Origin: a virus
IMG/VR virus record: IMGVR_UViG_3300025164_000635
Coordinates: 1 to 64,000 of that record
Reading direction: 5' to 3' (one strand)
DNA: 64,000 bases
A program made the translations under genes and the position numbers. The notes under the pieces were generated by a model. That model searched no databases. It was not told the origin of the DNA and saw only the letters and a list, made by a program, of their open reading frames with translations. This document shows positions 2,685-61,151 of this stretch, in pieces (positions within the stretch are counted from its first letter, which is position 1; the number at the start of each line of letters is the position of its first letter).

Positions 2685-2685
2685 T

Positions 2686-2883: not shown

Positions 2884-3152
2884 ATCCAAATCCAGTGGAT
2901 CGCGCCAATAAACTTGTCTCTAGCCTGGTTGAAGCTGGATGGATCGAAGATGGTGTAAAGGCTGCCGCATTGATCGCTGCCATTGCGCCAGTCATCCGTG
3001 ACGCTGAACTCGCCGCTGCCGAGCACGCAGCGAAGAAGATGCGAGTGGCCGCGATGGCTGCGCTGTACGATGCAGGAAGCGATGACCACCTCATCGTAAG
3101 GACGCTCAATCCTGAAGTCATTGCACGGCAGACGGTGGAAGAAGATGCCTGA
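2880..3152 (+). CDS. hypothetical protein, partial paralog of 2208..2684
   Basis: ATGA overlap, GGAG RBS, shared motif. Confidence 0.6.
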   Translation: MNPNPVDRANKLVSSLVEAGWIEDGVKAAALIAAIAPVIRDAELAAAEHAAKKMRVAAMAALYDAGSDDHLIVRTLNPEVIARQTVEEDA

Positions 3153-5037
3153 ATTTGTTCCAGTTGATCTGAATACGGCAACACCCTACTGGTGGAAGGT
3201 GTTTGAGCCGAGCGCCAGTCGTGCGTTTGAGGCAGCCGACCTGTACTGTGGCTGTGGCGGCGGGACGCAGGCCATCATCGAGTCGGTCATGAGGCGCGGC
3301 GGCCACATCCGAAAGATGATCGCCGTCAATCATTGGGATGCCGCCATCCAGGTACACAGCGCCAACTATCCCCAGGTGGCCCACTTCCTCAACAGTGTCG
3401 AGAACGTGGAGCCGAAGCTGGCTGTGCCTAACGGTCACCTGGACATCCTGACAGCGGGCATCAAGTGCACGCACCACTCACGAGCGGCCGGGGGCGTGCC
3501 GAGAAGTGAGCAGGAACGCATGGACGCCTTCCAGGTCTTGCGCTGGCTGCACGATCTGGACGTGAGCCGGCTCGTCATTGAAAATGTTCCAGAATTTCTG
3601 GAGTGGGGACCTCTTAACCAAGAAGGGCGGCCTATTGAGCGCTTGAAAGGGAAGCTGTTCGTCCAGTGGATCGGGATGCTGGAAGCACTCAACTACAAGG
3701 TGCAGTGGAAGGTTCTCACAGCCTGCTGGTATGGAGACCCGACGAGCCGGGAACGATTCTGGCTGATCGCCAAGAAGGGCAACCGGAAGGTCTTCTTCCC
3801 GGAAGCCACTCATCGAGATCCAAATCAGCCCGCCACGGTGGATATGTTCAGGCCCGAGTTACCGCCCTGGCCTGTGGCGCGAGACATCATTGACTTTGAG
3901 CTGCCGACTCGCAGCATCTTTGGTAGTGACCTGGTGCCGAACACGCTATCGAGAATCCTGGCCGGCTTGCACCGATTCGCCGGCATCCGTCTGAAAGTAG
4001 CCGAGCTTCCCGGCTGTCCTGAGTTCAAGGCCAGGAAGACCGGGAAGGGTGAGAAGATTCGTGTCTCGCCCTACGCCGTAGATGCCCATCGACTACACTA
4101 CCTCAACCTGGCGATCCGAGCCGCACAGGATCATCCCATCGCCGTCAAGAATCGGCGCTACGTCACCAAGGTTAATCCGAAGGCGGTCGATATGGTTCGC
4201 CGTCTCCAGCAGGCCGGTCCACCCAATGAAGAAACAGCGGCCGCCTACATGATCAAGATGTACGGAGAATCCCACTCAGCCTCAATAGATGAGGCCCTGC
4301 CTACGGTCGTCGGCGGATCTCACCTGGGATTCGTCTTGGTCAACCGGGGTGGCCAGGATGGGTACGATCGAAATCATAGCCTGGATGAAACCATGCCCAC
4401 CCTGACAACCGAGAATCCCATCGGTGTCGTGGACTTCCTGCTCCAGCAGCAGAGTGGGGGAGTAGCCCGGTCGGTTGAGCAGCCTGTTCCGGCTCTGGCT
4501 ACGGATGGCGCGGTCCGGCTGGTGAATGTGATCATGCCGTCCGAGGGGTACTACCGCGGCAATGGCGCCCGGCCGGACGATCAGCCTCTACCGAGCCTCA
4601 CCCGGCGAGGAGCAGGGCTGGTGAGCTATCTGGTCAGTGGCCATCACTACAACGGTCGAGATCGGATCGCCTCCAGTGAGGTCGCCATGCCGACCTTGAC
4701 CACAAGACCAGACTGGTCGGTCATCAACACCTTCCTGGCTATCCAGCACGGCACTAACTACGGGACAGAGCGAGACGGGCAGGGGGTAGATGAGGCACTC
4801 CGCACGGTGACCGGGAAGGATCGCTTCATGCTCGTTCTTCCCGGTCTGGGCTTCCTGGACATTCGCTACCGGATGCTGGCCTTGAAGGAACTGGCGAAGG
4901 CTCATTCGGTGCCGGCTGGCTTCACATTCGAGGGAGTGACGAACGAAGCCGGGAAGAAGATGATCGGTAATATGTGGCCGATCCGCATGGGCACGGCGGT
5001 TGTAGACGCTGCCCTGACCGAGAGAGGGGAGAAATGA
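3145..5037 (+). CDS. dcm: DNA (cytosine-5)-methyltransferase
   Basis: motif I DLYCGCGGG, motif IV GIKCTHHS (KC for PC), motif VI ENV, motif VIII PTSRERF, motif X GNMWP; long variable region with repeated PTL/PTV units. Confidence 0.9.
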   Translation: MPEFVPVDLNTATPYWWKVFEPSASRAFEAADLYCGCGGGTQAIIESVMRRGGHIRKMIAVNHWDAAIQVHSANYPQVAHFLNSVENVEPKLAVPNGHLDILTAGIKCTHHSRAAGGVPRSEQERMDAFQVLRWLHDLDVSRLVIENVPEFLEWGPLNQEGRPIERLKGKLFVQWIGMLEALNYKVQWKVLTACWYGDPTSRERFWLIAKKGNRKVFFPEATHRDPNQPATVDMFRPELPPWPVARDIIDFELPTRSIFGSDLVPNTLSRILAGLHRFAGIRLKVAELPGCPEFKARKTGKGEKIRVSPYAVDAHRLHYLNLAIRAAQDHPIAVKNRRYVTKVNPKAVDMVRRLQQAGPPNEETAAAYMIKMYGESHSASIDEALPTVVGGSHLGFVLVNRGGQDGYDRNHSLDETMPTLTTENPIGVVDFLLQQQSGGVARSVEQPVPALATDGAVRLVNVIMPSEGYYRGNGARPDDQPLPSLTRRGAGLVSYLVSGHHYNGRDRIASSEVAMPTLTTRPDWSVINTFLAIQHGTNYGTERDGQGVDEALRTVTGKDRFMLVLPGLGFLDIRYRMLALKELAKAHSVPAGFTFEGVTNEAGKKMIGNMWPIRMGTAVVDAALTERGEK

Positions 5038-9131: not shown

Positions 9132-9241
9132 AGCGCCTCTTACTGATCCTGCTCATCGTCTTCTTGGCTGGTTGTGGGGGCGGTGGGACAGTAGACGACA
9201 GTCCTGTTCCTGCGGGGTCGCAACTTGCCGCCGCCAAGTAG
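9128..9241 (+). CDS. small lipoprotein (37 aa; not in ORF track)
   Basis: MKRLLLILLIVFLAGC lipobox; AAGGAG RBS; ATGA overlap. Confidence 0.65.
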   Translation: MKRLLLILLIVFLAGCGGGGTVDDSPVPAGSQLAAAK

Positions 9242-10046
9242 ACCCCCCTTACGATACCACGGCGGGAAGTGGCGAATTGCATCCTGGATCATTGAATCCT
9301 TCCCGGATCATGACATCTATGTCGAGCCCTTCGGCGGCGGGATGAGTGTCTTGCTGCAAAAGACACCCTCCCGCCTGGAGGTTTACAACGACCTGGATGG
9401 GGACGTTGTGAACTTCTTCCGGGTACTCCGGGAAGATACGAGCGAGTTGCTGCGTTTGCTGCAGCTCACACCCTTCTCGCGTGCCGAGCTAGATTTGTCC
9501 TATCAGCCCTCTGCCGACCCACTGGAGAGGGCCCGGCGTTTCTACGTCCGGGCCCACCAGTCTTTCTCAGGCCCCTCGGCCCAAGTGCGATCGGGCTGGC
9601 GTTTCCAGAGAGAGAACGATTCTTGGTCAAGTATCGTTTATTTGTGGAGAGATGTCGAGCATCTTGTCGAAACTACGGGCCGCCTGAAGGATGTAGGTCT
9701 GGAGAACGATGAGGCTACGAAAGTCATCCAGCGATACGATACGCCCGATACCCTGTTCTACTGTGATCCTCCTTACCCGGCCGGTGTTCGCAGTGCCCGA
9801 TGGGGGAAAAAGGCATACCAGCACGAGATGACCAGGAAGGATCACATCCTACTGGCCGAGCTCCTGAACGATATTCAGGGCATGGCGATCGTGAGTAGCT
9901 ATCCTTCCCGGCTGTACGATCGGTTGTATGTGGGCTGGTCACTGGTGACTCATCCGGCTCGCTCCAATGGCAACCGAAACATGCTAGAGCAACTATGGAT
10001 TTCTCCAAACACACGGAAGCGGTCAAAACAGCAGCGGCTGTTCTAG
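9225..10046 (+). CDS. dam: DNA adenine methyltransferase, D12/Dam class
   Basis: PLRYHGGK, YVEPFGGG, YND, catalytic DPPY. Confidence 0.9.
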   Translation: MPPPSRPPLRYHGGKWRIASWIIESFPDHDIYVEPFGGGMSVLLQKTPSRLEVYNDLDGDVVNFFRVLREDTSELLRLLQLTPFSRAELDLSYQPSADPLERARRFYVRAHQSFSGPSAQVRSGWRFQRENDSWSSIVYLWRDVEHLVETTGRLKDVGLENDEATKVIQRYDTPDTLFYCDPPYPAGVRSARWGKKAYQHEMTRKDHILLAELLNDIQGMAIVSSYPSRLYDRLYVGWSLVTHPARSNGNRNMLEQLWISPNTRKRSKQQRLF

Positions 10047-11980: not shown

Positions 11981-12585
11981 GGATTTCCTCTTTTGATGAG
12001 TTCAATCACAACCGAGACGATGCCGGCCACTATACTACTGCCGAGAAGAGTCAGCAAGGCCACTTGGACATTAGCACGTGAGAGAATACGTGTCTTGGTG
12101 ATCTCTGTCTCGTCAGATCGGCCCTTCTGCTTTTCGACTTCTAGCCTGTCCAGCCGAAGTTTCTGGCTATCGACCAGAACCATGATCTCCCCTCTTGTGG
12201 AAGCCTGCCGTTCATCGAAATCGTCCTGAACAGCCGTTAAGGATTGCTGATAGCGAGCAATCCCATCGGCTGCTACCCTTTCGGCTCGTTCGCCCACTCG
12301 GACAGCATTGGTGAGCTGAGCCTCAATCATGGGACGTAGCTCGCCCAGAGATTTGCTGATCGTCTCAACCATTGGAGAGAGCTTTCCTAGTGCCTTCTCG
12401 ACTTCCTCAATTCGATCTCCGTGGCCATTGAACCTCTCAATGTTCTGCTCATTATAGGCACCCAAGCGATCACGTAGGTCATCCAGGCGACGTGCCAGAT
12501 CCAGGATTTGGGCGCCCGTGACTTGGTACTGTGACGTGAGTACCTTGAGCACGTGGCTCAGAGATGCATCGTCAGGTGGCATCAT
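11977..12585 (-). CDS. coiled-coil protein with a C-terminal transmembrane helix (lysis-module-like)
   Basis: heptad-rich body and a single C-terminal TM helix VALLTLLGSSIVAGIVSVVI. Confidence 0.6.
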   Translation of the reverse strand: MMPPDDASLSHVLKVLTSQYQVTGAQILDLARRLDDLRDRLGAYNEQNIERFNGHGDRIEEVEKALGKLSPMVETISKSLGELRPMIEAQLTNAVRVGERAERVAADGIARYQQSLTAVQDDFDERQASTRGEIMVLVDSQKLRLDRLEVEKQKGRSDETEITKTRILSRANVQVALLTLLGSSIVAGIVSVVIELIKRGNP

Positions 12586-13511
12586 CCCAGGTCTATCTCT
12601 GGAAGCCAGAATGCGAAAACACTTCCCTTTCCCGGCCAGCTTTTGACTTCCAACCGGCCACCGTGAATCTCAATCAAGCCCTTGACAATAGCCAGGCCAA
12701 GGCCGATCCCCTGTTGCTCACGCTTCTCACGGTCGATCTGCTCAAATGGAGTAAAGATGATCTCTATGTACTCCTGTGACAGACCTATACCGGTGTCCAC
12801 GACCTCACACCTTACACCTCGGTCTATCTCGAAGACCGAGATCTGGATCATACCCGCTTCTGTAAACTTGATTGCGTTTCCGAGAAGATGGCTGATGGCC
12901 TGTTCAATCTGCAGGCTGAATGCACAGACAGCGGGCAAATCGCTCGCAATACGAATCAAGAGTTTCAACCCTTTCCTTTCCAGAAGAGTCTGATGCTTTG
13001 GCAGGACATGATCGATAGCCACCTGCCACTCCCGAAATTCTTCTCGGTGTGCGGCATAGGCTAATTTCGCATCGCTGTATAGAATGTCGTTGAGTGATAG
13101 AAACTCATCGATCAACAACATCAATCGATCGATGCCCAGTGAGAGCTTGCCAATAAGCATCTTTCTATCAGAGCCAGTGATAGATGGATCCCGGAGAAGA
13201 TGGACGCCTCCCACCAGGAAGGTAGCGGGGGTGCGAAATTCGTGGTGAAGCATTGTAAGCGTGGATTTTCGTATTCTGTCTCGCTCCTTGCGTACTATGA
13301 TTCCTGATCGCAATCGTATCAGCAGTGTCAGGAAGAACGCGCCGATCGCAAACTGGGTAAGGTTCAGTGCCCACAGGACAAGACTCTCCTGTGCGGCACT
13401 CATGGCATAGATAATTGTTGTAGCTATCGTAAACGGAAGTGCGGCCATAACGAGGAGAGCTATGATAGTCTGGACAACCTGGATCGCACCTTCGTATGAA
13501 TATCTTCTCAT
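12582..13511 (-). CDS. membrane sensor histidine kinase (HisKA + HATPase_c)
   Basis: 2 N-terminal TM helices; H-box HEFRTP, N-box LLGNAIKF, G1 DTGIG, F-box IFTPF, G2 GIGLGLAIV, final G.GS.F. Confidence 0.92.
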   Translation of the reverse strand: MRRYSYEGAIQVVQTIIALLVMAALPFTIATTIIYAMSAAQESLVLWALNLTQFAIGAFFLTLLIRLRSGIIVRKERDRIRKSTLTMLHHEFRTPATFLVGGVHLLRDPSITGSDRKMLIGKLSLGIDRLMLLIDEFLSLNDILYSDAKLAYAAHREEFREWQVAIDHVLPKHQTLLERKGLKLLIRIASDLPAVCAFSLQIEQAISHLLGNAIKFTEAGMIQISVFEIDRGVRCEVVDTGIGLSQEYIEIIFTPFEQIDREKREQQGIGLGLAIVKGLIEIHGGRLEVKSWPGKGSVFAFWLPEIDLG

Positions 13512-23177: not shown

Positions 23178-23611
23178 GTAAGGGTGTCCTCCATGACCCG
23201 GATCGTGACTGTCCAGTATTCCTGGGCCGGGGTGAGTTGTCGAATAGGAGGCTCAATGACCATCAGACACCGGTAGCCATTCCCGGCATCTCGATTGACC
23301 GGGAAAGTGGGAGCGTCGTCGTGCAGGATGGGCATGTAGTAGCAGGTCTCGCCGGACAGGGCAATCAAGGCGTCCTTCTCGGCGGGCGTGGCAGTCACCT
23401 GCATGATGGCATCCCGGAACGTTACAATGTCTCCAGCGTTCCTCAAGCGATGGACATGCAATGCACCCGTCAGACTGCGTTCCTGGGAGACGGCTGCGGT
23501 CAAGCGTTCCTCGGGTCCGGGCTGGGCCACATGGTACATCGTTGAGTCATGTACCGGTTCATCGTCACTGTCCAGGAAGAGGTGTATGTGGTTGTGGATG
23601 ATACTAGCCAC
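23174..23611 (-). CDS. distal tail protein-like
   Basis: small gene directly after the tape measure gene; synteny only. Confidence 0.45.
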   Translation of the reverse strand: MASIIHNHIHLFLDSDDEPVHDSTMYHVAQPGPEERLTAAVSQERSLTGALHVHRLRNAGDIVTFRDAIMQVTATPAEKDALIALSGETCYYMPILHDDAPTFPVNRDAGNGYRCLMVIEPPIRQLTPAQEYWTVTIRVMEDTLT

Positions 23612-26600
23612 TCGTCAACTCCTGAACAGCCCGATTTACATTTGCGACGACCGCCTCAGTCAATCGCTCGAAGGCACGGAAAACAGTATCGTGTCCCTTG
23701 AAGTAGGGCTGGTGGGCGCTGCCCAGCGCCCCACTGATGTCTAGCACGATCGCGTTCAGTGAGTTTGCCAGCTTCCCGTTCGGGTCCTTGATGTCTTCTG
23801 AGAAACGATCGAACCGATAGCTCATGGCCGAGGTCAGGACGCCTATCTGATCCTGAAGGCGAATGACTTCCGCTGTGTGCAGCATGGTCTTGATCAGCGA
23901 GACGGCCTGGGCTGCACTCTCAATCTCGAACTGCTTCTTCCGGTCCTCGAAGGCTTTGACCTGCAGGCCATTGGTGATGCTAAAGTGCTTGACCGATTCG
24001 TCATGGCGAAGTTTCGCCATCTTCTGGTCTTCCTCAAACTGCTTGGCGCGTAAGCCGAACTGCTCTTCGTCCAGCTTGCCCTGCTCAAGCAATCGTTCCA
24101 AGGCACGCGCCAGATCCTCTTCAGCCCATTCCCGGCGTGTGTCGATACGATCCTTCTCTTTGCCGAAGTCCTCTTCGGCCCAGCCCCGACGTTCTTCGAG
24201 CCGGTTGCGTTCCCGGTTGAAATCTTCTTGGGCCCACTGCTGTCGTTCTTCTAAGCGTTCCCCTTCCCGGCCCAACTGCTCAACCTGCATCCCATATCCA
24301 ACGACGCCGCGTTCCCGCTGTCGGGACAACTGCCTTCTTTCCCGGCCCGTGGCGTAGCGCATGGCCGTGTCAATGTCCTCCATCTGCCAGCCGAAGGAGA
24401 GAGCTTGCTGCGACCCCTGGAAGGCCAGGTTCTCACGCTGCCATCCAAATTGAGTCTGTCCACGTTGGAAGTTGGTCGTCAGGTCTTGCAAGCTCTGGGT
24501 GAAGCGCGTCATGCTGCGCTCGAAATTCACCGTCAGATCCTGCTCCTGCCAGCCCAACCCAGTCATCTGCCGCTGGTACTGCCGTTGAACGTCCTCTTCG
24601 GTGCGGCCCCGCTGTATGCCGGATACTCTCCTCTGCTGCTCCAAATTCTCGTAGAACTGCCGATAGCCCAGGCCAGCGGCTCCCATGCGTTCCAGGTCAG
24701 CATACTCACCGCCCATCCCCTGGAAGGCATCGGCGCCCCGGCCCAGCCAGCCGTAGTTCATCGTCCCGGCCTGCAACTGGAATTGGCGTCTCTGCGCCCG
24801 GGCGCCTTCCCCAAGTTGCGCCTGCTCAATGTTGAAGCCGCCTGTGAAGTCGTAGCCGCCGATCTGACCGCCCAGCTGGTAGACCTGTTGCCGCCCCAGT
24901 TGCGCCAACTGTTGCTGGTACTGGAACTGCTGATAGGCGCGGTCGGCCATGCGTGCCTGTGATTGCGCCTGAACCAGATTCATGCCCGTGTCGATAGGGG
25001 CTGTCGTCCGGCCGTACAGCCGTTGGCCCATTGCCCAATCGGACGGGGCGAACATGGAGACATCCGTCGTCCCGGCCCTCTGAAGCGTTTCCGGCTCAAC
25101 CTGAATCAGTGATCGGAAGTCTGGTTGCGTAGTCGGGATGGCTCTCTGGATGACCTGCTGTACCTGTCCCATTTGGGCAGCGATGGCTTGCCCGGCCCCG
25201 AAGATGCCTCTTTGCCCACCGACCGCTGCGGCCCGGATGGCTGTTTCCGGGAAGAGGAAGCTCGCCCCTTGCTGCATGAGAGAGCGATCCCTATCTCTCT
25301 GCTCTCTTGCCTCCTGAGTAATGTTCTGCTGCGCCAGTGTCATGTCCTGCATCCGGGTTGCTTCGGCTCGAAGGTTCTGGGCAAACTGGGCCTGCTGCAA
25401 CTGCGGCTGCATCCCCTGAAGGCGGGTCGCTTCCCGGCTGATGGCAACCGGGTCGAGCGATCCAACCCGGGTGAGCATGGTTCTCTGCTCAGGAGACAGG
25501 TTGGTGATCAGGTCGGGTGTCAGGGCTGGCAGTTGGACGCCATACTGCTGCGCTAAGCCGCCGATAGGACTGATCTGGCCGAGATTGAACTGGGCCCTGA
25601 GTTGCTGTTGTGGGGTGAGCGAAATCGCCTGCTGAATTGTTCCAGCAAAGCCGGCCCCGCCCCATTCCATGCCGGCCGCTCTTGCCATGCCCACGCCGAG
25701 CCCCATGCGCTGCTGTTGGAGCTCAGGCGGCAAGAGCATCAATTGCTGCATCGCCTTGATGGACTCAGGCCGCATCATCGTCTGCAAGTCCATCCCAGTT
25801 GCCTGAGCCAGCAAGGCGCCCACCTTGACACCTGTGCCCGCTTCCATCGGCTGCCGGATCGCTTCCATGCGGGCTTCAAGTTCTTTGCCGAACCGGGAGT
25901 AGTCGGCAAATTTCTTCATCTGCTCGGCAGCTTCCTGAGTGGCCTTGGACCCTTCTCGGCTCGACCCTTCGGCCCGTTCTGCCCACATCGCGCCCGTGCG
26001 TTGTGCATCCTTCCAGACATCTGCGCTTTGTGAGAGACTTGCCACCAGGAGACGTGCACCCGTGTCGATTCCACCGAGAAGCTGGTTGACGATCTGACCA
26101 GCGGTTATCCCCTGTTGCCGGCCAATCGTCTCATCGTAGATGGCGCCACCGAGCGCAATCCCACCTGTCAGAGGCCCTGTAATAGCGCCTCCACCGGCAA
26201 GACGAGCGCCGAGAAGAGCACGGGTGCCCAGGATGCCGGCTCCCGTCCCAGCAACTCGCCCTATGGAAGCGCCCGTCTCGCCTCCTTGTGCCTCTCCAAT
26301 GTTTGCTCCAGCCTCTCCCAAGAGCTCGCCGCCCAGCAGTCCTATGCCAAGGGCACCTCCCACAAGGCCACCCCCTACACCAGCCCCCCGTAGCGCCAAT
26401 CGCCCCAGGGCACGTCCTTCCAGGGCATACATTCCTCTCAGGGCCGCTGTCTCACCAAGTCCACGCACACCACGTGCCAAGCCGCCTGCACGACCCACCA
26501 CCCCACCTGCGATATTCTCGGCCAGGCCCGTCATGGGCCGACCCAAAACACCAAGACCCGCCATACTTGCAAGGCGACCGCCACCGGCCAGAGCAAAAAG

Positions 26601-29600
26601 ACTACCCAGTCCTAAGCCACCAGCGGCCAGGGCGTAAGAGCCCAGTGAGGGCTGATCAGGATCTTCCATTCCAAGAACGCCCGAGGTGGCCTCCATGACG
26701 GGTCCCATGATGTCCCATCCAGCCCGACCGACCGACAGACCAAACCTTTGAGCCGCAACCTGCCCACGTCTGACGGTTCCGGCTGGCCCAAAGAAGCCAG
26801 CGGGTCCGCCCATCATAGCAACGTCCTGCTGTTGGCCACCTAGGAACTTGGCGTAATCGTCCATGCGCCCTGTAATCTGGCCGCCTGTCATACGCCAGGC
26901 ACGTTGCAGGTTCCAGGCGGCAAAGGCGATCTGACTGACATCGCCCTCACCAAAGATACGACCCATGGCGCTGCGCGCCGATCGTTGGAGAGCGGCCCTG
27001 GATAGCGGGTCTTGATCCTCGGCGCCCGCTTCCCGGAGTTGGACGATTTGTTGTCCAACCGCTCTTCTCTGCTCAGGCGTGAATCCCAATTCCTGGAAGA
27101 GGCCCCGCAGGCTGCGTGCGGCCTGTATGTCCCCCTGCGGGCCGGCCGCGGCCATCATCTCCTGTGCCCATTTCCGTTCAGCAGGAGCCTCCCTACCCTG
27201 CTGGATGCGCTTCAGGACATCCCCGAAATCCTCAGTGTGTCGGCGTGCCGTTTGAAGGGTCTCTCCGAAATCTTTGAGATACTTGTTCGTCTCCTTCTGT
27301 TGGATCGCGGCGGCCGCAATCTGCCGGAAGTTCTCGGCGGTCGACTCGGGCCCCACTGCCCCACCACCGAGTGTCTTCATTTCCGCGAATCGTTCTGCAA
27401 TGAACTTCTCGGTCACCCGGCCCGATTCGAGACGGCGGAACGTCTCGGCCGCGGCCGGAGTCATCTTGCCTTGGAACATCTGCTCAAGTACACCGCCTTC
27501 GTATCTTTCTCCTCCTTCAGTTGTGCCAGGCGGGAATGTTTCTGCCATGGCCTGGCCGAAAGTCTGTCCCTCTTTGATGCGCTGTCTGATGATCGACAAC
27601 TGCTCCTGAAAGCGCTCACCCCCGTACTTATAACCAAGATTCTTTGGACGTCCCTGGTACATAAGAACCCGACCGATGGCTCTCCCAACATCTCCCCCTT
27701 CCTCGGTGAGGAGCTTGACGAAATCACCCATCGACTGTGCGGCAATGTCGGCTGGAACCTGGCCCGGCTCTTTGTAGCCGGTCGTCGTCGAGGCTTCCCG
27801 TTCGGCTTTTGCTTGTGCTCGCCGACGAGCAACAAATTCAGCCGTCTCAATCCCGCTTCCTTCCTGGAAGATGCCGGCTGCGCGAGCCGATTCTCCAGGG
27901 GTAACCCCACCTGGTGTCTGGGGCGTGAGCCTCGGCTCGGGTGGTGTCTCAGGCTCAGGTGGTATTGCCATCACAGGCGGTCTTCTACTGGGTGGCTTGC
28001 GTCCACCGCCTCCCTGGGCACGAGGAGTTGGCGCTGGGGCAGTCGGATCGAAACGAGCTGCTAGTTCTTCAGGGCTCAACTCACCAGACACACGAGCCTT
28101 CATGGCCGCGTCCAGCCGATCCCGTTCCTCCTTGGCTATCTTCCGCCGCGCCTCTAGTAGCTCGCGTTCTTCGTCGTTTATGTTGGCTAGGTTCCCAGAA
28201 GAACCTGGATTGTCATACTCATCGAGGCTTGGAACTCCCACTCCCAGACGGATACGCTGCATCGCCTCCCAGGATTTCTGGCGGAACGCTTCCAGGCCAC
28301 GGGAGACTGTCTCAGTCACGTAAGTCGGAAGCAGGCCAGCGGAAGCCAGGTCGGACAATAGTCCACGAGCTCTCTCTTCCTCGTCCTCAGACTTTTCGCC
28401 TGTCACCCAAGGCGCGATATTGCCGCTTTCCAGACGTTGGGCGGCTAGCATCGGGGTTGCTAGGCGCTCGAAGAAGCCGAATCCACCGGTCGGCTGCCGT
28501 CCCTTAGCGGTCTGCTGGAAGTTGGTGTACTGTGGATTGTTGATGACATCTCGCATGATGCCACGCAGCCAGGGCGCTTTACTCTGAACACCCCGGTTGG
28601 TGATACGAGTGCCAATCACGGCTGTCAGAGGGCCTGCCTCTTTCCAGAAGCCCTGCTCACCGCCCATCCCCTGAATTAGGTCGTTGACCAGCTCTTCGGT
28701 CACGTCGTCACGGGTGACCCCCTCAAGCCTCTTGGCAATTCCTGTTCTCGTCTCAGGATTGGACGAAAGGAGGGTTGCCACGTCCCGATGCCAGGCTTTG
28801 TTGAGCTGTTCTTTAGTGGGGTCGGCAAAGCCACGGAACTCCTCGGCTTCCAGGACAGCCCGGATGATCTCCTTGGGGAGGGCCTGGAAGTCAACTTCTC
28901 GCTCGGGCGGCTTGCCCATTGTGGGATCGAGGGTTTCCCGAATCTTGCCGCGTACCCGACCTCGGCTGGTCGGGTCGTCTTCCCCGCCCGTCCTCAACGA
29001 ATAGGAGTTCATGATGCCCATCAGGGTTCTCATGCCGGACGAGACCGGCTCGTCCAGAGAAGCTTGATAGGCGAAATAGGAGGTACGCGCCAGAGTATCC
29101 TGTTCGCTCTGGGTGTTCATACCCATCGACTTCATCGCGATGGACAGGTTCCTTACAAACGGGTTGAACACATCGCCCCGCTGCTTCTGGGCAATCTGCT
29201 CGACGAGGTATGCCTGACGAGCGTCCTTGGTGGTGACCGAGGCGTTCATCTGCTCCAGGCTACCAAAGAACTCATCGGCCGTCTTGGGCGCCTTGCCGAC
29301 ATTCTGCATCCACTTGGCGAGTTCGGATGCCTTCATGCCGGTTCGTCTGACCAGATCATCCTCAACCGTCAAGTAGTTCTCCCAAGTGCGCTGACCGTGT
29401 ACCTGCTCACCGGTCACCAGCTCCAGGAACCGGAACTGCCGTTCCAGGAACTCTTCCTCTGTGGATCTCCTGGCGGCCTCGCCCGGCGTGGTGATGGACT
29501 TGCCAATCTTGAACACGGTGGCCAGGAAGAGAGCCACCTGGTCCCCATCTGCGTCCCCTTGGAAGCGGTTGGCGATCATCTGGGAGAAAGCCATCCCCTG

Positions 29601-32600
29601 GAAGTTCCGAGGAACGGGGATTCCCAAGCGGCCCGCCTCGGCGGTCGTCACGATCCGGAAGCCCGGCATGGACGTTACGCCTTGTAGCACGTCTGGTCGC
29701 CTCTGGCCCAAGGCGGTCATACCTGTCTCAACGTACCGATCCAGTGCCTCCTGGCTCATATCCCCTGAAGGCATACCGGTCAGTTCCCGCAACGCTTTTT
29801 CACCAACGATGACTTCCATAGGACGGGCGCCGGGAATGAAGGCATACGTCCCTTCTGTCCCCATGCGACCTGTCACATCTGAGGAGACCAACCCTTTCGC
29901 CACGGCCTTTGTGCCCATCAGTCGATTCATCCGATCACGTACCTGGCCGAAGGCACGCGCCTCTTCATTTGAGCCGGCCCGGGCTTTGACGAGCGTCTCG
30001 TAATAGTGGATGATCGCGTTATGTTCCTCTTGGGGGAACACGTCCTTCTCGGTGCCGGGAATGGGGTTGACCATTCCCGTGACTTCACTCGGAACGCTCA
30101 TGATCGACATCTGCGGCAATGGCGGAGTGATCACTCCGCCCCCAATGTCAACATACCGGCCTGGCGTAACCTGAGCCATCTTCTCAACAAACGAGAGCTC
30201 AGATGGTAGCTTGGCGATCTCTTCTCGGAGGTCTGCTAGGCTGACGACATTCATGTCCTCGCGAGTGGTTGGGTCCCGTGAGGCAGTAGCCGATTTCAGC
30301 AGACTCTCGTAATACTGGCGCTGGTGCCCTCCTTCCCGGAGTGCCCTTTCGGCCATACGAGGCGGCATGGCCTGCAACTCACCGAGCGTGGCCTGAGCCC
30401 GGCCCGTCCAGAGTTTCTCCATCTGGAACATGCGGCCGCCGACCGGCATCGCCCCCTGGAAGGTGACTTCCCGACGCTCGTTCCGATTCTGCCGCCAGTC
30501 ATCCCAGTCGATCTGGCCCAACGACTCCCGCCCATGAACACGGGCGTAGGTTTCGGCCTCCTCGTAGCTGACCGGGATACTCATGCGGACGTTCTGCTTC
30601 ACCATCTGCTGCTGAATGGCTCGTCCGATTTGGATGATGTAGGGGTCTAGTTTTTCGCCCCAGATCAGGCGTTTGCCGGTGATGGCCGCCTTGCTCTTCC
30701 GGGCCCACTCCCGTTCTTCGGGATCATAGTCCTCGACCAATCCTTCTTTGTAAGGGTCAAGACCCATCGACTGAAGCGTTTTAGTTAACAGCTCAAAGCC
30801 GCGTTTCTTGGTAGCGTAATAGTCACTCACCAGCGAGAAAAGTTCCTGACGAGGCGCTTGTGCAACTGGCATCAGCGCTTCAATGTTCAGGGCACCCCCC
30901 TCAACCCGTTTATTCAAGTCCTCGTAGGCCATGCCAACCGCTTTGTTTCCGAGCCAGGACTTGATCAACTCCTGCTCACCGCTAACCTTCCCCACGCCCT
31001 CCACCCGCAGCATGGACTCGCCACTCTCATAATGCTGGAAGGCGCGATTGACTGCAAACTGCATGAACTGCTTGGCCTTGAACGCTATCTCCCGGGCGTG
31101 CCCCAGCCGCCCCAGGGGGATTGAGCCACCGGTCTGCCGGCGATAGGCTTCCTCGTCCGGTGTAAAGTCCACACCCGAAGGAAGAGGGATGTCTTCCTGG
31201 TGGGGAAGGACAAAGCCGCCCTGGGCATCCATCTGCCGCATGGTTGCGGCGTCCATCAACATCATGCCTTCTGGCAAGTTCGGGGTGTACCCCACATTGA
31301 AGTGGATGCCTCGCTCAGAACGAGGAGCTCCTTCCATGCGGAACGGGGAGATGATGTTCCGACCCGTTTCAGGGGCCGCCGAGAGCATGTAGTCCCGGCG
31401 TGCAGCCATCGACACCCGTTTGCGGATCTTGGCAATCTGCTCCAGCAGAAGACCCGCTCTGATTCTTCCCGGCGTAGAAACATGGCCGGGAAGAGCCTTG
31501 TTGAGTTGCTCAATGTCATAGCCCAAGCTTGGATCACGTCCACGTGCCACCAGGCCGCCCGACTTCTCGTACCATCTCTGGACGGTCATCGGGTCGCCAG
31601 ACTCGCGTTCCTGACCTACTTGGTTGATCTTCACAGCCAACTGGTTCAGGGCTTCTCCGGCCGCGGTCGACGTCTCGCCAAAGACAGGCCCGACTCTGGG
31701 CATCCCTTCCATGAGCTTGCGGCGTCTCTCGTTCACGAGACGCATGGCCGCCCGGGGAGTCATCCCCTCTCCAATGGATTTACGCCACACGTGCATCAAC
31801 TCCGAGAAGATCTCGGGCTGGACGGGCCTCATGCCGGCTTCAAACTGGACGGGCGTGACAAGCACATCATCGATCGTCGGCTGGCCACGGAACTCACCCA
31901 ATCGCCCTTCCTGGACGACCGGCATCTCCCCCGTTTCCTTCTCGGAGGCAATGTCGGGCAGAATGAAGCGGCCGCCCTGGGTGAGAATGGACTTGGCTCC
32001 CAGAATCTCTTTGACGCGGCCGTAGGCCACACGTGCAAAGCCCAGAGGGGATGTTTCGGCAACTGGCTCGGTTGGCTTTTCGGCAGCCCTCTGCGGGAGA
32101 CGGGTCGGATCAAAGCTACTGACCCCGATCTCTTGCATATGAGATTGAAGCTCTTTGATAGCCTCTTCTTCCGAGAAGTCTCCCTTCCGGGCGCCCTTCG
32201 CCAGCATGCCGGCGATCTCGTACAGCGCCCGCATATCTCGCCGCCAAGCAAACGGGATGACAGGCGAGCCGGGTTCGCCAGTGCCTCTCTCGAACTCACT
32301 CAGTCGATGGGGGTGAAATCCAGTCCACTTCTCAATGAGACCTGCCTCATCAGAGGCGGCACGGATGGGGGTATAGAGAGTGCCGCCGGGCTGAAACTCT
32401 TTGGCCTCGGCCACAGGCCGCTCAGAATAGGTGATGTTCTTAACCGGTACTAGCTCCGAGGAAAGATGAGGGATTTCCTCGACGTTCTGACCCGTCATAC
32501 GCCTCATGATCTGGCGGGCGTACTCAACCCGGTTCTCTTCGTTCAGGCCGTGCCAAGCGACGATGATGTCTGTCGCAATGGTCTTGGGAGCAAAGAACAG

Positions 32601-33065
32601 GCTGGCCTTTGCTCCTGGGGCAAGGCTTTCTCGGAGTGCGTGGGCATACATTTGGGGCTGGAGAAAATAGCCCTCTTCCTTCGGGGTGCCGGTGTATTTC
32701 TCAGGCTGGAAGTGGACCTTCTCGGTGGGCGTGGAGACCTTAACGTCTGAGACGTTGATGATCTTATCGCCACCGTTCCAGAGCACGACGTCAGGCCGTC
32801 CCTTATAGGGAATATCGTAAGCTCTGCCGGTCAGCCCCTTGATCTGAGTGGAGATACGCGCAACGCCCGTCCCGGAAAGAGTCTCAGGATGGGCTTTTAC
32901 GAAGGGGATCAGTGTGTCTGAGACAAACTGATCGAACTCTTCACCGTGCTTGATGTCTTCAGATGACCAGAAACCCTGCTTGGGATCGCTGGAGAGGTAG
33001 GGCCAGCCTTTAGCGGAATAAGCGGCCGCGCTCGGTCTGACTTCGGGACGATCAGGAGGAGGCAT
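23604..33065 (-). CDS. giant tape-measure protein fused to a putative two-barrel RNA polymerase and an N-terminal PD-(D/E)xK domain
   Basis: tape-measure position after tail tube and chaperones; C-terminal Gly/Ala hydrophobic and Q/E/R helical repeats; QRRP and RFQGDADGDQVALF (aa ~1121, ~1171); KSWLGNKA..EDL (aa ~700); GRPD..DVK..QPQMY (aa ~92-140). Confidence 0.8.
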   Translation of the reverse strand: MPPPDRPEVRPSAAAYSAKGWPYLSSDPKQGFWSSEDIKHGEEFDQFVSDTLIPFVKAHPETLSGTGVARISTQIKGLTGRAYDIPYKGRPDVVLWNGGDKIINVSDVKVSTPTEKVHFQPEKYTGTPKEEGYFLQPQMYAHALRESLAPGAKASLFFAPKTIATDIIVAWHGLNEENRVEYARQIMRRMTGQNVEEIPHLSSELVPVKNITYSERPVAEAKEFQPGGTLYTPIRAASDEAGLIEKWTGFHPHRLSEFERGTGEPGSPVIPFAWRRDMRALYEIAGMLAKGARKGDFSEEEAIKELQSHMQEIGVSSFDPTRLPQRAAEKPTEPVAETSPLGFARVAYGRVKEILGAKSILTQGGRFILPDIASEKETGEMPVVQEGRLGEFRGQPTIDDVLVTPVQFEAGMRPVQPEIFSELMHVWRKSIGEGMTPRAAMRLVNERRRKLMEGMPRVGPVFGETSTAAGEALNQLAVKINQVGQERESGDPMTVQRWYEKSGGLVARGRDPSLGYDIEQLNKALPGHVSTPGRIRAGLLLEQIAKIRKRVSMAARRDYMLSAAPETGRNIISPFRMEGAPRSERGIHFNVGYTPNLPEGMMLMDAATMRQMDAQGGFVLPHQEDIPLPSGVDFTPDEEAYRRQTGGSIPLGRLGHAREIAFKAKQFMQFAVNRAFQHYESGESMLRVEGVGKVSGEQELIKSWLGNKAVGMAYEDLNKRVEGGALNIEALMPVAQAPRQELFSLVSDYYATKKRGFELLTKTLQSMGLDPYKEGLVEDYDPEEREWARKSKAAITGKRLIWGEKLDPYIIQIGRAIQQQMVKQNVRMSIPVSYEEAETYARVHGRESLGQIDWDDWRQNRNERREVTFQGAMPVGGRMFQMEKLWTGRAQATLGELQAMPPRMAERALREGGHQRQYYESLLKSATASRDPTTREDMNVVSLADLREEIAKLPSELSFVEKMAQVTPGRYVDIGGGVITPPLPQMSIMSVPSEVTGMVNPIPGTEKDVFPQEEHNAIIHYYETLVKARAGSNEEARAFGQVRDRMNRLMGTKAVAKGLVSSDVTGRMGTEGTYAFIPGARPMEVIVGEKALRELTGMPSGDMSQEALDRYVETGMTALGQRRPDVLQGVTSMPGFRIVTTAEAGRLGIPVPRNFQGMAFSQMIANRFQGDADGDQVALFLATVFKIGKSITTPGEAARRSTEEEFLERQFRFLELVTGEQVHGQRTWENYLTVEDDLVRRTGMKASELAKWMQNVGKAPKTADEFFGSLEQMNASVTTKDARQAYLVEQIAQKQRGDVFNPFVRNLSIAMKSMGMNTQSEQDTLARTSYFAYQASLDEPVSSGMRTLMGIMNSYSLRTGGEDDPTSRGRVRGKIRETLDPTMGKPPEREVDFQALPKEIIRAVLEAEEFRGFADPTKEQLNKAWHRDVATLLSSNPETRTGIAKRLEGVTRDDVTEELVNDLIQGMGGEQGFWKEAGPLTAVIGTRITNRGVQSKAPWLRGIMRDVINNPQYTNFQQTAKGRQPTGGFGFFERLATPMLAAQRLESGNIAPWVTGEKSEDEEERARGLLSDLASAGLLPTYVTETVSRGLEAFRQKSWEAMQRIRLGVGVPSLDEYDNPGSSGNLANINDEERELLEARRKIAKEERDRLDAAMKARVSGELSPEELAARFDPTAPAPTPRAQGGGGRKPPSRRPPVMAIPPEPETPPEPRLTPQTPGGVTPGESARAAGIFQEGSGIETAEFVARRRAQAKAEREASTTTGYKEPGQVPADIAAQSMGDFVKLLTEEGGDVGRAIGRVLMYQGRPKNLGYKYGGERFQEQLSIIRQRIKEGQTFGQAMAETFPPGTTEGGERYEGGVLEQMFQGKMTPAAAETFRRLESGRVTEKFIAERFAEMKTLGGGAVGPESTAENFRQIAAAAIQQKETNKYLKDFGETLQTARRHTEDFGDVLKRIQQGREAPAERKWAQEMMAAAGPQGDIQAARSLRGLFQELGFTPEQRRAVGQQIVQLREAGAEDQDPLSRAALQRSARSAMGRIFGEGDVSQIAFAAWNLQRAWRMTGGQITGRMDDYAKFLGGQQQDVAMMGGPAGFFGPAGTVRRGQVAAQRFGLSVGRAGWDIMGPVMEATSGVLGMEDPDQPSLGSYALAAGGLGLGSLFALAGGGRLASMAGLGVLGRPMTGLAENIAGGVVGRAGGLARGVRGLGETAALRGMYALEGRALGRLALRGAGVGGGLVGGALGIGLLGGELLGEAGANIGEAQGGETGASIGRVAGTGAGILGTRALLGARLAGGGAITGPLTGGIALGGAIYDETIGRQQGITAGQIVNQLLGGIDTGARLLVASLSQSADVWKDAQRTGAMWAERAEGSSREGSKATQEAAEQMKKFADYSRFGKELEARMEAIRQPMEAGTGVKVGALLAQATGMDLQTMMRPESIKAMQQLMLLPPELQQQRMGLGVGMARAAGMEWGGAGFAGTIQQAISLTPQQQLRAQFNLGQISPIGGLAQQYGVQLPALTPDLITNLSPEQRTMLTRVGSLDPVAISREATRLQGMQPQLQQAQFAQNLRAEATRMQDMTLAQQNITQEAREQRDRDRSLMQQGASFLFPETAIRAAAVGGQRGIFGAGQAIAAQMGQVQQVIQRAIPTTQPDFRSLIQVEPETLQRAGTTDVSMFAPSDWAMGQRLYGRTTAPIDTGMNLVQAQSQARMADRAYQQFQYQQQLAQLGRQQVYQLGGQIGGYDFTGGFNIEQAQLGEGARAQRRQFQLQAGTMNYGWLGRGADAFQGMGGEYADLERMGAAGLGYRQFYENLEQQRRVSGIQRGRTEEDVQRQYQRQMTGLGWQEQDLTVNFERSMTRFTQSLQDLTTNFQRGQTQFGWQRENLAFQGSQQALSFGWQMEDIDTAMRYATGRERRQLSRQRERGVVGYGMQVEQLGREGERLEERQQWAQEDFNRERNRLEERRGWAEEDFGKEKDRIDTRREWAEEDLARALERLLEQGKLDEEQFGLRAKQFEEDQKMAKLRHDESVKHFSITNGLQVKAFEDRKKQFEIESAAQAVSLIKTMLHTAEVIRLQDQIGVLTSAMSYRFDRFSEDIKDPNGKLANSLNAIVLDISGALGSAHQPYFKGHDTVFRAFERLTEAVVANVNRAVQELTSG

Positions 33066-33067
33066 CG

Positions 33068-33430
33068 CTAGGTCCGGTTGAAGAGGTTTTGAAGATCATT
33101 CTTGCCGTTCCCTTGTTGGAACTTCTGCTCCAGGACTTGATCCATCCACTCTCGGAAGTCGGACTCGCCCGAGGCGCACGCCTCGAACTCGTTCATCAGG
33201 ATGTGTGGCTGTGAGGCAACACCACCTGGCCACCACAGGCTGTTCCAGGTTCGGCACTTGCGATAGAGCCAGTAGACCTCTGGCATCTTCTGAACTCCCT
33301 CCGGGAAGAGGGCTGACTCAGGCACCATGGAGAAGGTGTTGCCGAACTTGAGGCGTTCGGCTTGGTAATACTCGTACTTGAGTGCACCCGCTACCGCCTC
33401 CTGAATCTGGCGATAGTGGGCGCTCATCAT
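33068..33430 (-). CDS. tail assembly chaperone (gpT-like)
   Basis: between chaperone and tape measure; LWWPGG...QP motif; overlaps the upstream ORF in the -1 frame. Confidence 0.55.
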   Translation of the reverse strand: MMSAHYRQIQEAVAGALKYEYYQAERLKFGNTFSMVPESALFPEGVQKMPEVYWLYRKCRTWNSLWWPGGVASQPHILMNEFEACASGESDFREWMDQVLEQKFQQGNGKNDLQNLFNRT

Positions 33431-33903
33431 TTTGCTTGCTGCCAGTCCCAGTCTGGATTGAACTGACGAACCGCCCGATGGATGGTCTGGGCAACCAACG
33501 GGTGGAGCTTGCCCCATATCGAGGTGAACTCCTCCCACTTCATGATGTTGGCCGGCATCTTGGGGAAGACCGGCTTTCCGTTGCGTTCCAGGTTGCCCAC
33601 GTCTTGCAGAGTCCAGTAGGCTTCGTGCTGGATCCGCTCACGCCAGTTATCATCAATCACTTCAGACACGGCCAATCCGCTTTCGTCGGCCCCGGTGTAT
33701 CGTACCTCTCGTTTCGACTGCAAATCCGTTCTCCGGATCTGATCTTCTTCGGTCGCCTGCCGGACAACGACCCACACCCGTTTGGCGTCCCGTTCCTCGT
33801 CAGGAAGGCCGTCCAACTGTTGGTCTTCCAGGGACTTGAAAGCTGGCGAGATGTCGGCCAATTTGATCGGCTCACTGATGGTCGGATAGAGTGCGAGATC
33901 CAT
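33427..33903 (-). CDS. tail assembly chaperone (gpG-like)
   Basis: directly after the tail tube gene; AGGAG RBS; C-terminal NPDW. Confidence 0.6.
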   Translation of the reverse strand: MDLALYPTISEPIKLADISPAFKSLEDQQLDGLPDEERDAKRVWVVVRQATEEDQIRRTDLQSKREVRYTGADESGLAVSEVIDDNWRERIQHEAYWTLQDVGNLERNGKPVFPKMPANIMKWEEFTSIWGKLHPLVAQTIHRAVRQFNPDWDWQQAK

Positions 33904-52476: not shown

Positions 52477-54879
52477 ATGTCGTTCACGTCATTTCGCTCT
52501 ACCCGTAAGGTGGTTGTGGTGGACCGCTTCGGGCGACCCACCGGAGAGGAAAGGATTCTCTCTAACAGCCCGATCGACGCCCTGTTCCCTGACGAGAAGA
52601 TCGTCATGGTGAACTGGAAGTACGAGGGCGCGAAGGCGCCCACCGCTGAAGAGTTGCGCCGGCCGATCCGCCACGGCGGCAACGAGTACCGTGGTGACTG
52701 GGCCTGGGGCAGCAGCGTCAAGCGCGGATACACTGTGGGCCTGACCCGTGACCTGCTGGTGGACACGGGATTGCTGAACTGCTGTGAGGACGCCCACCGA
52801 TTCGGTCGGGCGTTCCTTGCCAACGGCCTGTATGGGGCCGGGAAGGGTGAGCTGCACATCAAGTTCGTGCCCGAAGGGACTCAGACCCTGGCCGGCCCGG
52901 TGGCGGACGGCTTCGGGTATGTGAGACGCTCGGTGGCCGAGAAGATGAATGCCGGACACGACAAGATCAAGTTCGGCACCGCGCGCGACTCGTCGCACTG
53001 GTGGCAGCGCATTCCCTGGACATCCGAGATCCAGGAAGAGCTGGAGCCGCTTCTGCGTGACAACCTGGTGGAGGCTGGTGACCCCGGGTTGTGGATGTTG
53101 AGGCAGTTAGGCGACCGCGATCAGGGTCGCCGCCACCTGGTCGAAGCCGAGCCGTTGATGGCTGAGCACCCGTATGTGGCGAACATGCTCATGAGGGTGT
53201 CCTCAGACATCCTGGCCCGGGCGGCCACGACGGTCCCCCTGAATCACGCGGTGAAGGTTACTGTGCCCGCGAACGTCCCCAACATCGCTGTGGACGGGAA
53301 AACACTGAGCACGCGCTACCCGATCGATGCCAAGAACTCCATCCGGGCGAACAACAACACGCTCAACACCGTGGAAGCCGAGATGGAGCGGATTGCCGAG
53401 ATGGAGCGGATTGCCCAGATGGAGGTCATTCAGTATGGCATGACCTCCATGGGTGACCATCCCTTCTCGGCTAAAGGCTGCGCCGGGATCGTTGACGATG
53501 ATCTCCTCGATGCCGACTTCGTGTTGTGCACGAAGGACATCAAGATGGGTGACAAGAAGTTGGTGGACATCAAGGCGGAGATCGTGGTCTCGGTGACCCA
53601 GTGGTTTGCCCAGGGCGAGGCGGTCGGTGTGAATACGAAGTTCTGGGCCGACCAGGGCGGTGATTGCGACGGCGATCTGGCGTTGATCGCCGATTGCAGT
53701 GAGTTGCCCCGCCTGTGGGAGGCGGTTAGCGGGTTTGGGCTCCAGCCCACGCCCAAGCTCATCAAGACTCACACGAAGCTGGAGGACGAGGACATCCGGG
53801 GTGAGTTGGCTGAGAAATCCATGCTGAATGTGGTCGGCATGGCAGTCAACCTCATGGCTGCGACGTTTGTCACGGCCAACCGGGAAGAGATGGCCCACCG
53901 CCTGGGCTATGCGAGTGAGGCTGCCCTGGATAACGCCCTGAATTACTGGGTGAAAGCAGGCACGGATCTCTTCAAGGTGTCTGTCGACACCAAGCAGCTC
54001 ATGCAAGATCTCTCTCGGTTCCAGAGCAAGCTGGTCAATGTGCTCGGTACGCTGCCGCCGTGGGTGAGCTGGCCCAACGACTGGGCCTTCACGCACGGCG
54101 TCCCGTCCTTCTGGAACGAGGACGAGATGGGTCACCTGAAGAGCGACGATCCTGTTCGGAAGAATGCCGTTCCTACCAATTCCTGGTACGACGGGACCAT
54201 CGTCCAGATCATGAGGCTGACCCTGCTCGCCCTCAGCGCGATGCTGAGCCATACCCTGGCTGTGCGGCCGCTGCATGACTTCCAGAGATGGGCCCTGGTT
54301 GTGCCGGACAGTGTTCTGGGGCCCGCGATCGGTCTCCAGAAGATGTTCGTAGCCGAGTCCCAGCGCGTCAACTGGGAGTGGCCCCAGGATGTCGTCCGCT
54401 TCAGCCAGTGGTGGGCCGAGAAGGTCGCCACCTGGAAGAACGAGATGGGCCTGGATGACACCCTAGCCTGCGCTGCTATCTGGCGCGCGGCCCATGACAT
54501 GCGGAGCAAATACGCCGGGGCGTCGTCTGTGTTCATGGCCTTCCCGGAAGAAGTACTGGATATTCTCCGGGATAAGCCCGGCCTCTCCAAGTTGGTGTCT
54601 GGTGTCATCCTCGGCCTGCCCGAAGTGACCGAGGAGACGGTCATCCAGGGCACCGTTCGGGAGTTCAAACGCAAGGACTCACAGTCCGGCCGGACCGTCA
54701 TCCGCAAGTGCTTGGTGGACGGTAACTCGGGCCTACCCCATATGCCCGACATCAACTACCCGGGCGCGATTGCCGTCTTTGCTTCGGATCACCCGTCGCC
54801 CGAGAATGGGCTGAAGGTGACCGTCAAGGTCACCCGGCGCACCAAGAAGTCCTGGTTCGCTGATTGCATCTGCCAGTAG
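52477..54879 (+). CDS. single-subunit two-barrel RNA polymerase (YonO / cellular-RdRP-like)
   Basis: ADGFGYV, TRYP, QY...SAKGC...DFVL..KDIK, catalytic GGDCDGD (53662-53676), G...N...AGTDLFK. Confidence 0.8.
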   Translation: MSFTSFRSTRKVVVVDRFGRPTGEERILSNSPIDALFPDEKIVMVNWKYEGAKAPTAEELRRPIRHGGNEYRGDWAWGSSVKRGYTVGLTRDLLVDTGLLNCCEDAHRFGRAFLANGLYGAGKGELHIKFVPEGTQTLAGPVADGFGYVRRSVAEKMNAGHDKIKFGTARDSSHWWQRIPWTSEIQEELEPLLRDNLVEAGDPGLWMLRQLGDRDQGRRHLVEAEPLMAEHPYVANMLMRVSSDILARAATTVPLNHAVKVTVPANVPNIAVDGKTLSTRYPIDAKNSIRANNNTLNTVEAEMERIAEMERIAQMEVIQYGMTSMGDHPFSAKGCAGIVDDDLLDADFVLCTKDIKMGDKKLVDIKAEIVVSVTQWFAQGEAVGVNTKFWADQGGDCDGDLALIADCSELPRLWEAVSGFGLQPTPKLIKTHTKLEDEDIRGELAEKSMLNVVGMAVNLMAATFVTANREEMAHRLGYASEAALDNALNYWVKAGTDLFKVSVDTKQLMQDLSRFQSKLVNVLGTLPPWVSWPNDWAFTHGVPSFWNEDEMGHLKSDDPVRKNAVPTNSWYDGTIVQIMRLTLLALSAMLSHTLAVRPLHDFQRWALVVPDSVLGPAIGLQKMFVAESQRVNWEWPQDVVRFSQWWAEKVATWKNEMGLDDTLACAAIWRAAHDMRSKYAGASSVFMAFPEEVLDILRDKPGLSKLVSGVILGLPEVTEETVIQGTVREFKRKDSQSGRTVIRKCLVDGNSGLPHMPDINYPGAIAVFASDHPSPENGLKVTVKVTRRTKKSWFADCICQ

Positions 54880-60824: not shown

Positions 60825-61151
60825 ATGGATCCCTCTTCAACAACCATCTTTCTATCCATCATGACCCTCATCACGCTCATGCTGGGCGGCCTGATCGCCG
60901 TAGACTATTACGATCGGTCCATCGCCCGATCGCGTGACTACGAGGTGAGGAAGCTCATCGTCGCTCCAGACGAAGTGGAGTTCACTGTTTACTTCCAGCG
61001 CCGGGCAGGATTTCGGTGTATCTCTCACACCGAAACCCTACGCGGGAAGAGGGAACTCCTCTTCGAGACGGGCAATATCCCAGAATGGGCCTTTGCTCGG
61101 GTGTCCACCATGCAGAGATACACGACACGACCCAGGAGTGCCCATGCCTGA
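60825..61151 (+). CDS. membrane-anchored hypothetical protein
   Basis: N-terminal TM helix; AAGGAG RBS. Confidence 0.6.
   Translation: MDPSSTTIFLSIMTLITLMLGGLIAVDYYDRSIARSRDYEVRKLIVAPDEVEFTVYFQRRAGFRCISHTETLRGKRELLFETGNIPEWAFARVSTMQRYTTRPRSAHA

Follow-up and report, generated by a model that had tools for sequence, protein, structure and literature searches.

A candidate RecB-type nuclease domain heading a giant polymerase- and tape-measure-like protein of a soil phage

Can a single tail protein carry both a polymerase and a DNA-cutting enzyme into the cell at the start of an infection? This question is raised by a gene of a soil phage known from the IMG/VR virus record IMGVR_UViG_3300025164_000635 (95,304 bp, rated complete), of which positions 1 to 64,000 were analysed here (this whole stretch of 64,000 nucleotides (nt) is referred to as the window). 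The gene is an open reading frame (ORF) at 23604-33065 on the minus strand that translates to a protein of 3,153 amino acids (aa), P0001, in which a nuclease-like head is followed by a polymerase-like part and a tape-measure-like C-terminus. An earlier note on this DNA had proposed that the span 32620-33065, which corresponds to aa 1-149, holds RecB/Cas4-like nuclease motifs of the PD-(D/E)xK type. Our analysis suggests, with a probability that we put at roughly 0.6, that aa 34-175 are a highly diverged, probably active, metal-dependent RecB-type PD-(D/E)xK nuclease without an iron-sulfur cluster, which would head the polymerase/tape-measure chain and be delivered with the virion. Judged from its sequence, the phage is thus likely to deliver its own polymerase into the cell along with a nuclease.

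Nuclease-like motifs and their conservation

Upstream of the ATG of the giant gene, the reading frame continues without a stop for no more than 10 codons and the TAG stop of the upstream gene lies 2 nt before the ATG, so that the annotated start can be taken as the true N-terminus of the 3,153-aa protein. An identical N-terminal sequence is present in two further public assemblies (P0002 and P0006), which excludes an assembly artefact.

The motifs on which the earlier note was based, namely G(EEF), D92, D107-x-K109 and QxxxY, were all found in the translated ORF at the positions given there. The D ... (D/E)-x-K signature has the canonical order and spacing, with a gap of 15 residues between D92 and D107 (23 residues if D84 is taken instead of D92), and the (D/E)xK is followed by a QxxxY motif (Q136-x-x-x-Y140). 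The individual motifs and their coordinates are listed in Table 1. Such a likeness may be coincidental, in which case the N-terminal region would be a conserved structural or assembly domain that makes tail completion/terminator contacts or packs the polymerase, and would be non-catalytic. To set the motifs against a null, shuffled sequences were searched with a loose pattern, D-x(8-30)-[DE]xK-x(15-45)-QxxxY, and with a strict pattern that adds hydrophobic strand context. The strict pattern was rare, appearing in 0.05% of the shuffles of aa 1-260 and in 0.3% of the whole-protein shuffles, which argues against a purely structural domain.

Conservation could be assessed in a family of three members. 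Apart from the window protein, these are P0004 (2,987 aa; 30% identity over aa 34-1450), which was retrieved by a word-based search with the polymerase-like region, and a second homologue in locus L002 (L002:10001-14737), which was retrieved by a genome scan, is 85% identical to P0004 and is encoded by a frameshifted gene. Locus L002 is a metagenome-assembled 'delta proteobacterium' contig (CAVPJB010000015.1, 213 kb) and may represent a prophage or a mis-binned phage. Its giant gene (L002:10001-18752) lies in two frames of 1,578 aa and 1,357 aa with a break near position 14,700, and this break could be either a sequencing error or genuine.

Across aa 34-175, 36 of the 142 positions are invariant over the window protein, P0004 and L002, giving a background of ~25%. 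All five of the catalytic-type residues that had been named beforehand (D92, D107, K109, Q136, and Y140) are kept in both P0004 and L002, which are ~28% identical to the window protein in the domain, and this is above chance (hypergeometric p = 8e-4). Full conservation of pre-named residues against such a background would not be expected of an assembly domain that resembles a nuclease by coincidence. Further invariant positions are G41, F44, D45, G80, R81, D84, G89, V110, S111, Q138, and A141. With regard to overall divergence, the identity of the nuclease-like domain to P0004 is 30% compared with 33-38% for the polymerase-like part (second identity figure, 84% compared with 85-89%). The domain therefore diverges no faster than the polymerase-like part and more slowly than the region connecting the two (Table 1), which suggests that it is a constrained folded unit.

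Recognition as a PD-(D/E)xK nuclease

Two kinds of comparison link the domain to known nucleases. In a feature search of the ESM Atlas, aa 1-200 of the window protein reached 0.96 to viral clusters named PD-(D/E)XK nuclease, and 12 of its 30 matches were in sets carrying PF12705 (PDDEXK_1), some of the sets carrying Cas4. The N-terminus of the homologue (27% identical) also reached 0.96, had 177 of 256 features in common, and placed 26 of its 30 matches in the PF12705 set. According to the tool, roughly one shuffled protein in 100 attains 0.95. That two divergent sequences separately arrive at PDDEXK_1 clusters is a further point against a merely structural domain.

In the second comparison, a profile of the three N-terminal sequences was aligned by hhalign with PF12705-domain alignments that were built locally from fetched genomes. 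Against 30 AddB nuclease domains, the score was 24.6 (P = 0.009), higher than in any of 100 column shuffles (null 13.0 ± 2.3, maximum 19.1, n=100). Against nine Cas4 sequences, the score was 16.7 (null 12.4 ± 2.0) and was equalled by 4% of the shuffles, and a third PF12705 subgroup gave no signal. When the protein was taken as nine consecutive 171-residue segments, the N-terminal one was top against both AddB and Cas4. The AddB signal is thus weak yet specific to the head of the protein, and it again speaks against an assembly domain.

These results separate the two halves of the earlier label, 'RecB/Cas4-like'. The RecB half holds up on the motifs, their conservation, the ESM Atlas features and the AddB signal, whereas the Cas4 half fails for want of cysteine. 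There is not one cysteine in the 3,153 aa of the protein, so that an iron-sulfur cluster like those of Cas4 (four cysteines) and AddB is ruled out and with it Cas4 in the strict sense; PF01930 (Cas4) had no match at E <= 10 either. The model of the YqaJ or lambda-exonuclease type (PF09588) likewise had no match at E <= 10. The proper label is therefore 'RecB-like, iron-sulfur-free' and not 'Cas4-like'.

Several results nonetheless weigh against a nuclease assignment, and some of them favour an assembly domain instead. The motifs by themselves are weak evidence, given that the loose pattern is unremarkable: it arose by chance in 36% of the whole-protein shuffles, i.e., in about one third at such a protein length, and in 3.9% when aa 1-260 alone were shuffled. 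The conservation test is effectively one divergence, since two of the three members are 85% identical to each other. No nuclease family was returned by the Pfam, PHROGs, NCBIfam, and PADLOC models for either the domain or its homologue, even at E <= 10. PF12705 had no match at E <= 10 in an hmmscan of the domain or in a six-frame scan of the phage, which places the domain below the family threshold, and the six-frame scans with PF01930, PF09588, and PF10926 (DUF2800) were empty as well. When aa 1-260 were compared by phmmer with 1.84 billion representative proteins, the protein itself was the sole match apart from a spurious repeat protein (P0003), and no relative came up in phmmer and profile searches of the Protein Data Bank (PDB). 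The hhalign probability of the AddB match is only 4.5%, which is not significant in itself, and the alignment path places motif II of AddB and Cas4 on G80-R-x-x-D84 rather than on G89-x-x-D92, with the DxK out of register with that of AddB. AlphaFold did not produce the restriction-endonuclease-like alpha-beta-beta-beta-alpha-beta fold with confidence: the predicted local distance difference test score was 34 with one sequence as input and 45 with a three-sequence alignment, and values were <50 in the presumed beta-sheet core (aa 73-157). Finally, the tape-measure and polymerase identities of the remainder of the protein are themselves predicted from position, composition and short motifs.

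What is known of other tape measures can also be read in favour of an assembly domain. The N-termini of the tape measure of phage 80alpha make assembly contacts at the neck, where the tail completion protein links them with the end of the DNA (10.1101/2024.12.10.627806). In gp96 of Thermus phage P23-45, a tape measure with an N-terminal two-barrel virion RNA polymerase that is found in virions, the first 326 residues are helical or disordered and are dispensable for polymerase activity (Nat Commun 2024, PMC10770324). Considering the strict pattern, the pre-named residues, the two ESM Atlas results and the AddB score together, we regard an assembly domain as unlikely, although it has to be taken seriously, and we consider it fairly likely, on the grounds given above, that aa 34-175 are a PD-(D/E)xK nuclease domain. 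The motif II aspartate of this candidate could be either D92 or D84; both are invariant, and the profile alignments prefer D84.

Searches for more members were made with several approaches. Word-based searches with aa 1-260 and with the full-length protein gave none, nor did scans for N-terminal patterns in 484 related genomes and in viral and metagenome contigs, and tblastn against 50,697 phage records returned nothing useful. Hidden Markov models (HMMs) built locally for AddB, Cas4, and the third PF12705 subgroup found no nuclease domain in P0001 itself or in 39 metagenomic giant proteins that are described below. If our assignment is right, the domain would be a PD-(D/E)xK member that is missed by every HMM library and picked up by conservation and language-model features.

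Proposed delivery and possible role at genome entry

A RecB-type nuclease that enters the cell with the virion is the explanation that we favour for aa 34-175. As candidate active-site residues, we propose D45 in the first helix, D92 (or D84), D107-x-K109, and, in the helix that comes next, Q136xxxY140. With the head, the two-barrel-polymerase-like part and the tape-measure-like C-terminus in one polypeptide, all three would be packed in the virion, and at infection the nuclease, the polymerase and the ruler would enter the cell envelope or the cytoplasm along with the DNA.

It is also possible that the nuclease is genuine but acts late in the producing cell, before tail assembly or after cleavage from the giant protein, in host DNA degradation, recombination or packaging, and is not delivered. 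The gene does lie within the late structural module, tape measures are often seen fragmented, and the six-frame model scans found no other recognisable RecB-, Cas4- or YqaJ-type nuclease in the phage. However, the fusion is kept in all three members, and the N-terminal polymerase part of P23-45 is found in virions within the full-length protein (PMC10770324). No protease site and no separate gene form were found for the nuclease-like domain, and we consider action in the producing cell improbable. Even less probable is a genuine nuclease that cuts or trims early transcripts on the injected polymerase: an endonuclease N-terminal to a polymerase in one chain has a parallel in influenza PA and the bunyavirus L protein, but QxxxY and the PDDEXK_1 neighbours are typical of DNA-end nucleases (RecB, AddB, Cas4), bacterial mRNAs need no cap-snatching, and nothing ties the domain to RNA.

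For the virion-delivered DNA nuclease, the place of action may be suggested by 80alpha. With tape-measure N-termini located at the DNA end, an N-terminal nuclease would adjoin the leading end of the genome. As few copies of the protein would be present per virion, and these would start out beside the DNA end, it is more plausible that the nuclease acts in cis where the DNA enters than that it degrades host DNA in bulk. The nuclease might nick or resect the incoming end, or cleave DNA around the pore, including that of the host, and would do so jointly with the polymerase to which it is fused. The roles suggested in the earlier note, exposure of hairpin promoters for the polymerase or an attack on host DNA, are speculative. 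Beyond this, it is tempting to see the nuclease as a functional partner of the injected polymerase in a self-contained 'cut and transcribe' entry module. The nuclease would then supply on the spot the nick, the resected end or the cleared template that the polymerase needs to start transcription of the incoming genome, or the pair would disable host DNA while that genome enters. We view this partnership as rather doubtful.

Provided that the domain is active, one chain would deliver both a polymerase and a DNA-cutting enzyme as the genome enters. This would be relevant to the way in which injected polymerases locate or make the template that they use first, to the means by which phages forestall host DNA or defences ahead of all gene expression, and to the range of cargo that tail tubes can take.

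The giant protein, its genomic setting and known systems

The part of the protein that follows the connecting region carries a QRRP motif and, downstream of it, a GDADGD motif (Table 1). A QRRP followed by GDxDGD is the arrangement of the second double-psi barrel in two-barrel RNA polymerases. No Pfam or PDB match was obtained for this polymerase-like part. The C-terminus of the giant protein is rich in Q, E, and R, and the absence of cysteine from the entire chain fits a protein that has to unfold and cross the envelope.

Table 1 Features of the giant gene and of related genes in the window. Coordinates are those of the window; residues are those of the encoded protein.
Feature	Coordinates	Strand	Residues	Remarks
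Giant virion gene	23604..33065	-	3,153 aa	Nuclease-like head, polymerase-like part, proline-rich linker, glycine/alanine-rich hydrophobic part, ruler-like C-terminus
Nuclease-like domain, candidate PD-(D/E)xK of RecB type without iron-sulfur cysteines	32541..32966	-	aa 34-175	Aligns with P0004 and L002 from aa 34
Motif I candidate, G41-E-E-F-D45	32931..32945	-	aa 41-45	G41, F44, D45 invariant; position 43 is E or D
Alternative motif II, G80-R-A-Y-D84-I	32811..32828	-	aa 80-85	G80, R81, D84 invariant; hhalign matches motif II of AddB and Cas4 here
Motif II of the first reading, G89-R-P-D92-V-V	32784..32801	-	aa 89-94	G89, D92 invariant
Motif III, D107-V-K109-V-S	32733..32747	-	aa 107-111	D, K, V, S invariant
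Motif IV, Q136-P-Q-M-Y140-A	32643..32660	-	aa 136-141	Q136, Q138, Y140, A141 invariant; hhalign pairs it with QLxxY of AddB
Connecting region	32016..32540	-	aa 176-350	Less conserved; identities 26% and 77%
Polymerase-like part	28566..32015	-	aa 351-1500	QRRP (aa 1121-1124, 29694-29705) and GDADGD (aa 1170-1175, 29541-29558), both invariant in P0004; motif level only
Proline-rich linker	27888..28049	-	aa 1673-1726	Follows the polymerase-like part
Glycine/alanine-rich hydrophobic stretch	26076..26768	-	aa 2100-2330	36-43% G+A
C-terminal ruler-like module	23706..25028	-		Common to 39 metagenomic loci
Two small genes directly upstream of the giant gene	33068..33903	-		Conserved and syntenic in L002
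Candidate second, non-virion polymerase	52477..54879	+	800 aa	Early region; GGDCDGD at aa 394-400; no Pfam family

The C-terminal module is widespread. It was found in 39 loci (L069-L107; e.g., L072:3482-11143, L074:102-10205, and L105:986-11914) as a region corresponding to aa ~2035-3150 with the pattern FGW[QG]MED. The complete giant ORFs among these loci encode 1,973-3,643 aa and are without DxDGD or a nuclease-like head, and most giant ORFs that have the module contain 0-1 cysteines. None of these complete ORFs matched a Pfam or PHROG family. Together, the giants make up a large and so far undescribed family of tail proteins whose N-terminal cargo is unassigned, and the presence of the C-terminal module without DxDGD and the head implies that the head/polymerase module was added in a particular lineage to a giant tail protein that is itself widespread. 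In one of these giants (L085:5306-11224, plus strand), aa 112-145 gave a weak Sigma70_r2 match (E 1.7e-4, 21.8 bits, below the 24-bit cut-off), which we mention as a lead for a different transcription-related cargo.

The giant gene lies downstream of terminase, portal, capsid-like, and adaptor genes and upstream of fibre-like genes, and L002 is syntenic with the window across the head, connector, and tail genes. The two small ORFs directly upstream of it share 112 nt in the -1 frame, an overlap like that of tail chaperone pairs, and the second of them probably starts at the ATG at 33433/33430. A frameshift of the gpG/GT type as proof that the giant gene occupies the tape-measure slot was rejected because the overlap has no XXXYYYZ slippery heptamer.

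Elsewhere in the window, a C5-cytosine DNA methyltransferase (3121-5037, plus strand) and a D12-class N6-adenine DNA methyltransferase (9225-10046, plus strand) are encoded. The phage DNA may thus be methylated, which could tell it from host DNA for an injected nuclease. The window also encodes a histidine-kinase-like ORF at 12582-13511 on the minus strand (HATPase_c 1.7e-25, HisKA 1.9e-5) and a RadC-like JAB domain protein at 61093-61863 on the plus strand (E 6.5e-40).

Among known nucleases, the candidate domain is most readily compared with the PDDEXK_1 group (PF12705; RecB, AddA/AddB, Cas4, and Exo5). It shares with this group the size of ~140 residues and the order of four motifs, namely G-x-x-h-acid (helical), G-x-x-D-h-h, (D/E)-x-K, and Q-x-x-x-Y. 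It differs in having an aspartate in motif I where many members have a histidine, and in being the N-terminus of a giant virion protein that falls below all HMM thresholds. The pattern G-[KR]-x-D-V-V ... D-x-K ... Q-x-x is also very similar to the Cas4 sequences that were fetched (e.g., Saccharolobus SSO0001, PF01930), but the four iron-sulfur cysteines of Cas4 are lacking in the window domain and the hhalign score against Cas4 was barely above its null.

The layout of the whole chain resembles that of P23-45 gp96 in that a candidate polymerase signature stands ahead of a ruler-like part in one giant protein, the polymerase activity of the window protein being predicted only. The resemblance extends to the rest of the genome: P23-45 has a second, non-virion polymerase, and its authors propose that transcription is coupled to DNA entry (PMC10770324), while the window phage has a stand-alone polymerase-like gene in its early region (Table 1). 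No sequence similarity was found between the window protein and gp96, and the first 326 residues of gp96 hold no nuclease motifs. A head domain homologous to the gp96 N-terminus was accordingly rejected, given also that the gp96 region is helical. To our knowledge, gp96 is the only studied tape-measure-fused virion polymerase, and it is without a nuclease; in our literature searches, we came across no tape measure or ejected pilot protein described as carrying a PD-(D/E)xK nuclease.

In influenza PA and the bunyavirus L protein, a PD-(D/E)xK endonuclease is placed ahead of a viral polymerase, either within one chain or within a complex, and these N-terminal endonucleases serve in cap-snatching. 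These systems differ from the window protein in that their polymerases are RNA-dependent, that capped host mRNA is cut, and that their endonucleases are without QxxxY. If the candidate domain is indeed a nuclease, the lineage of the window phage would be a second one of tape-measure-fused polymerases, unrelated to that of P23-45, and one to which a nuclease has been added.

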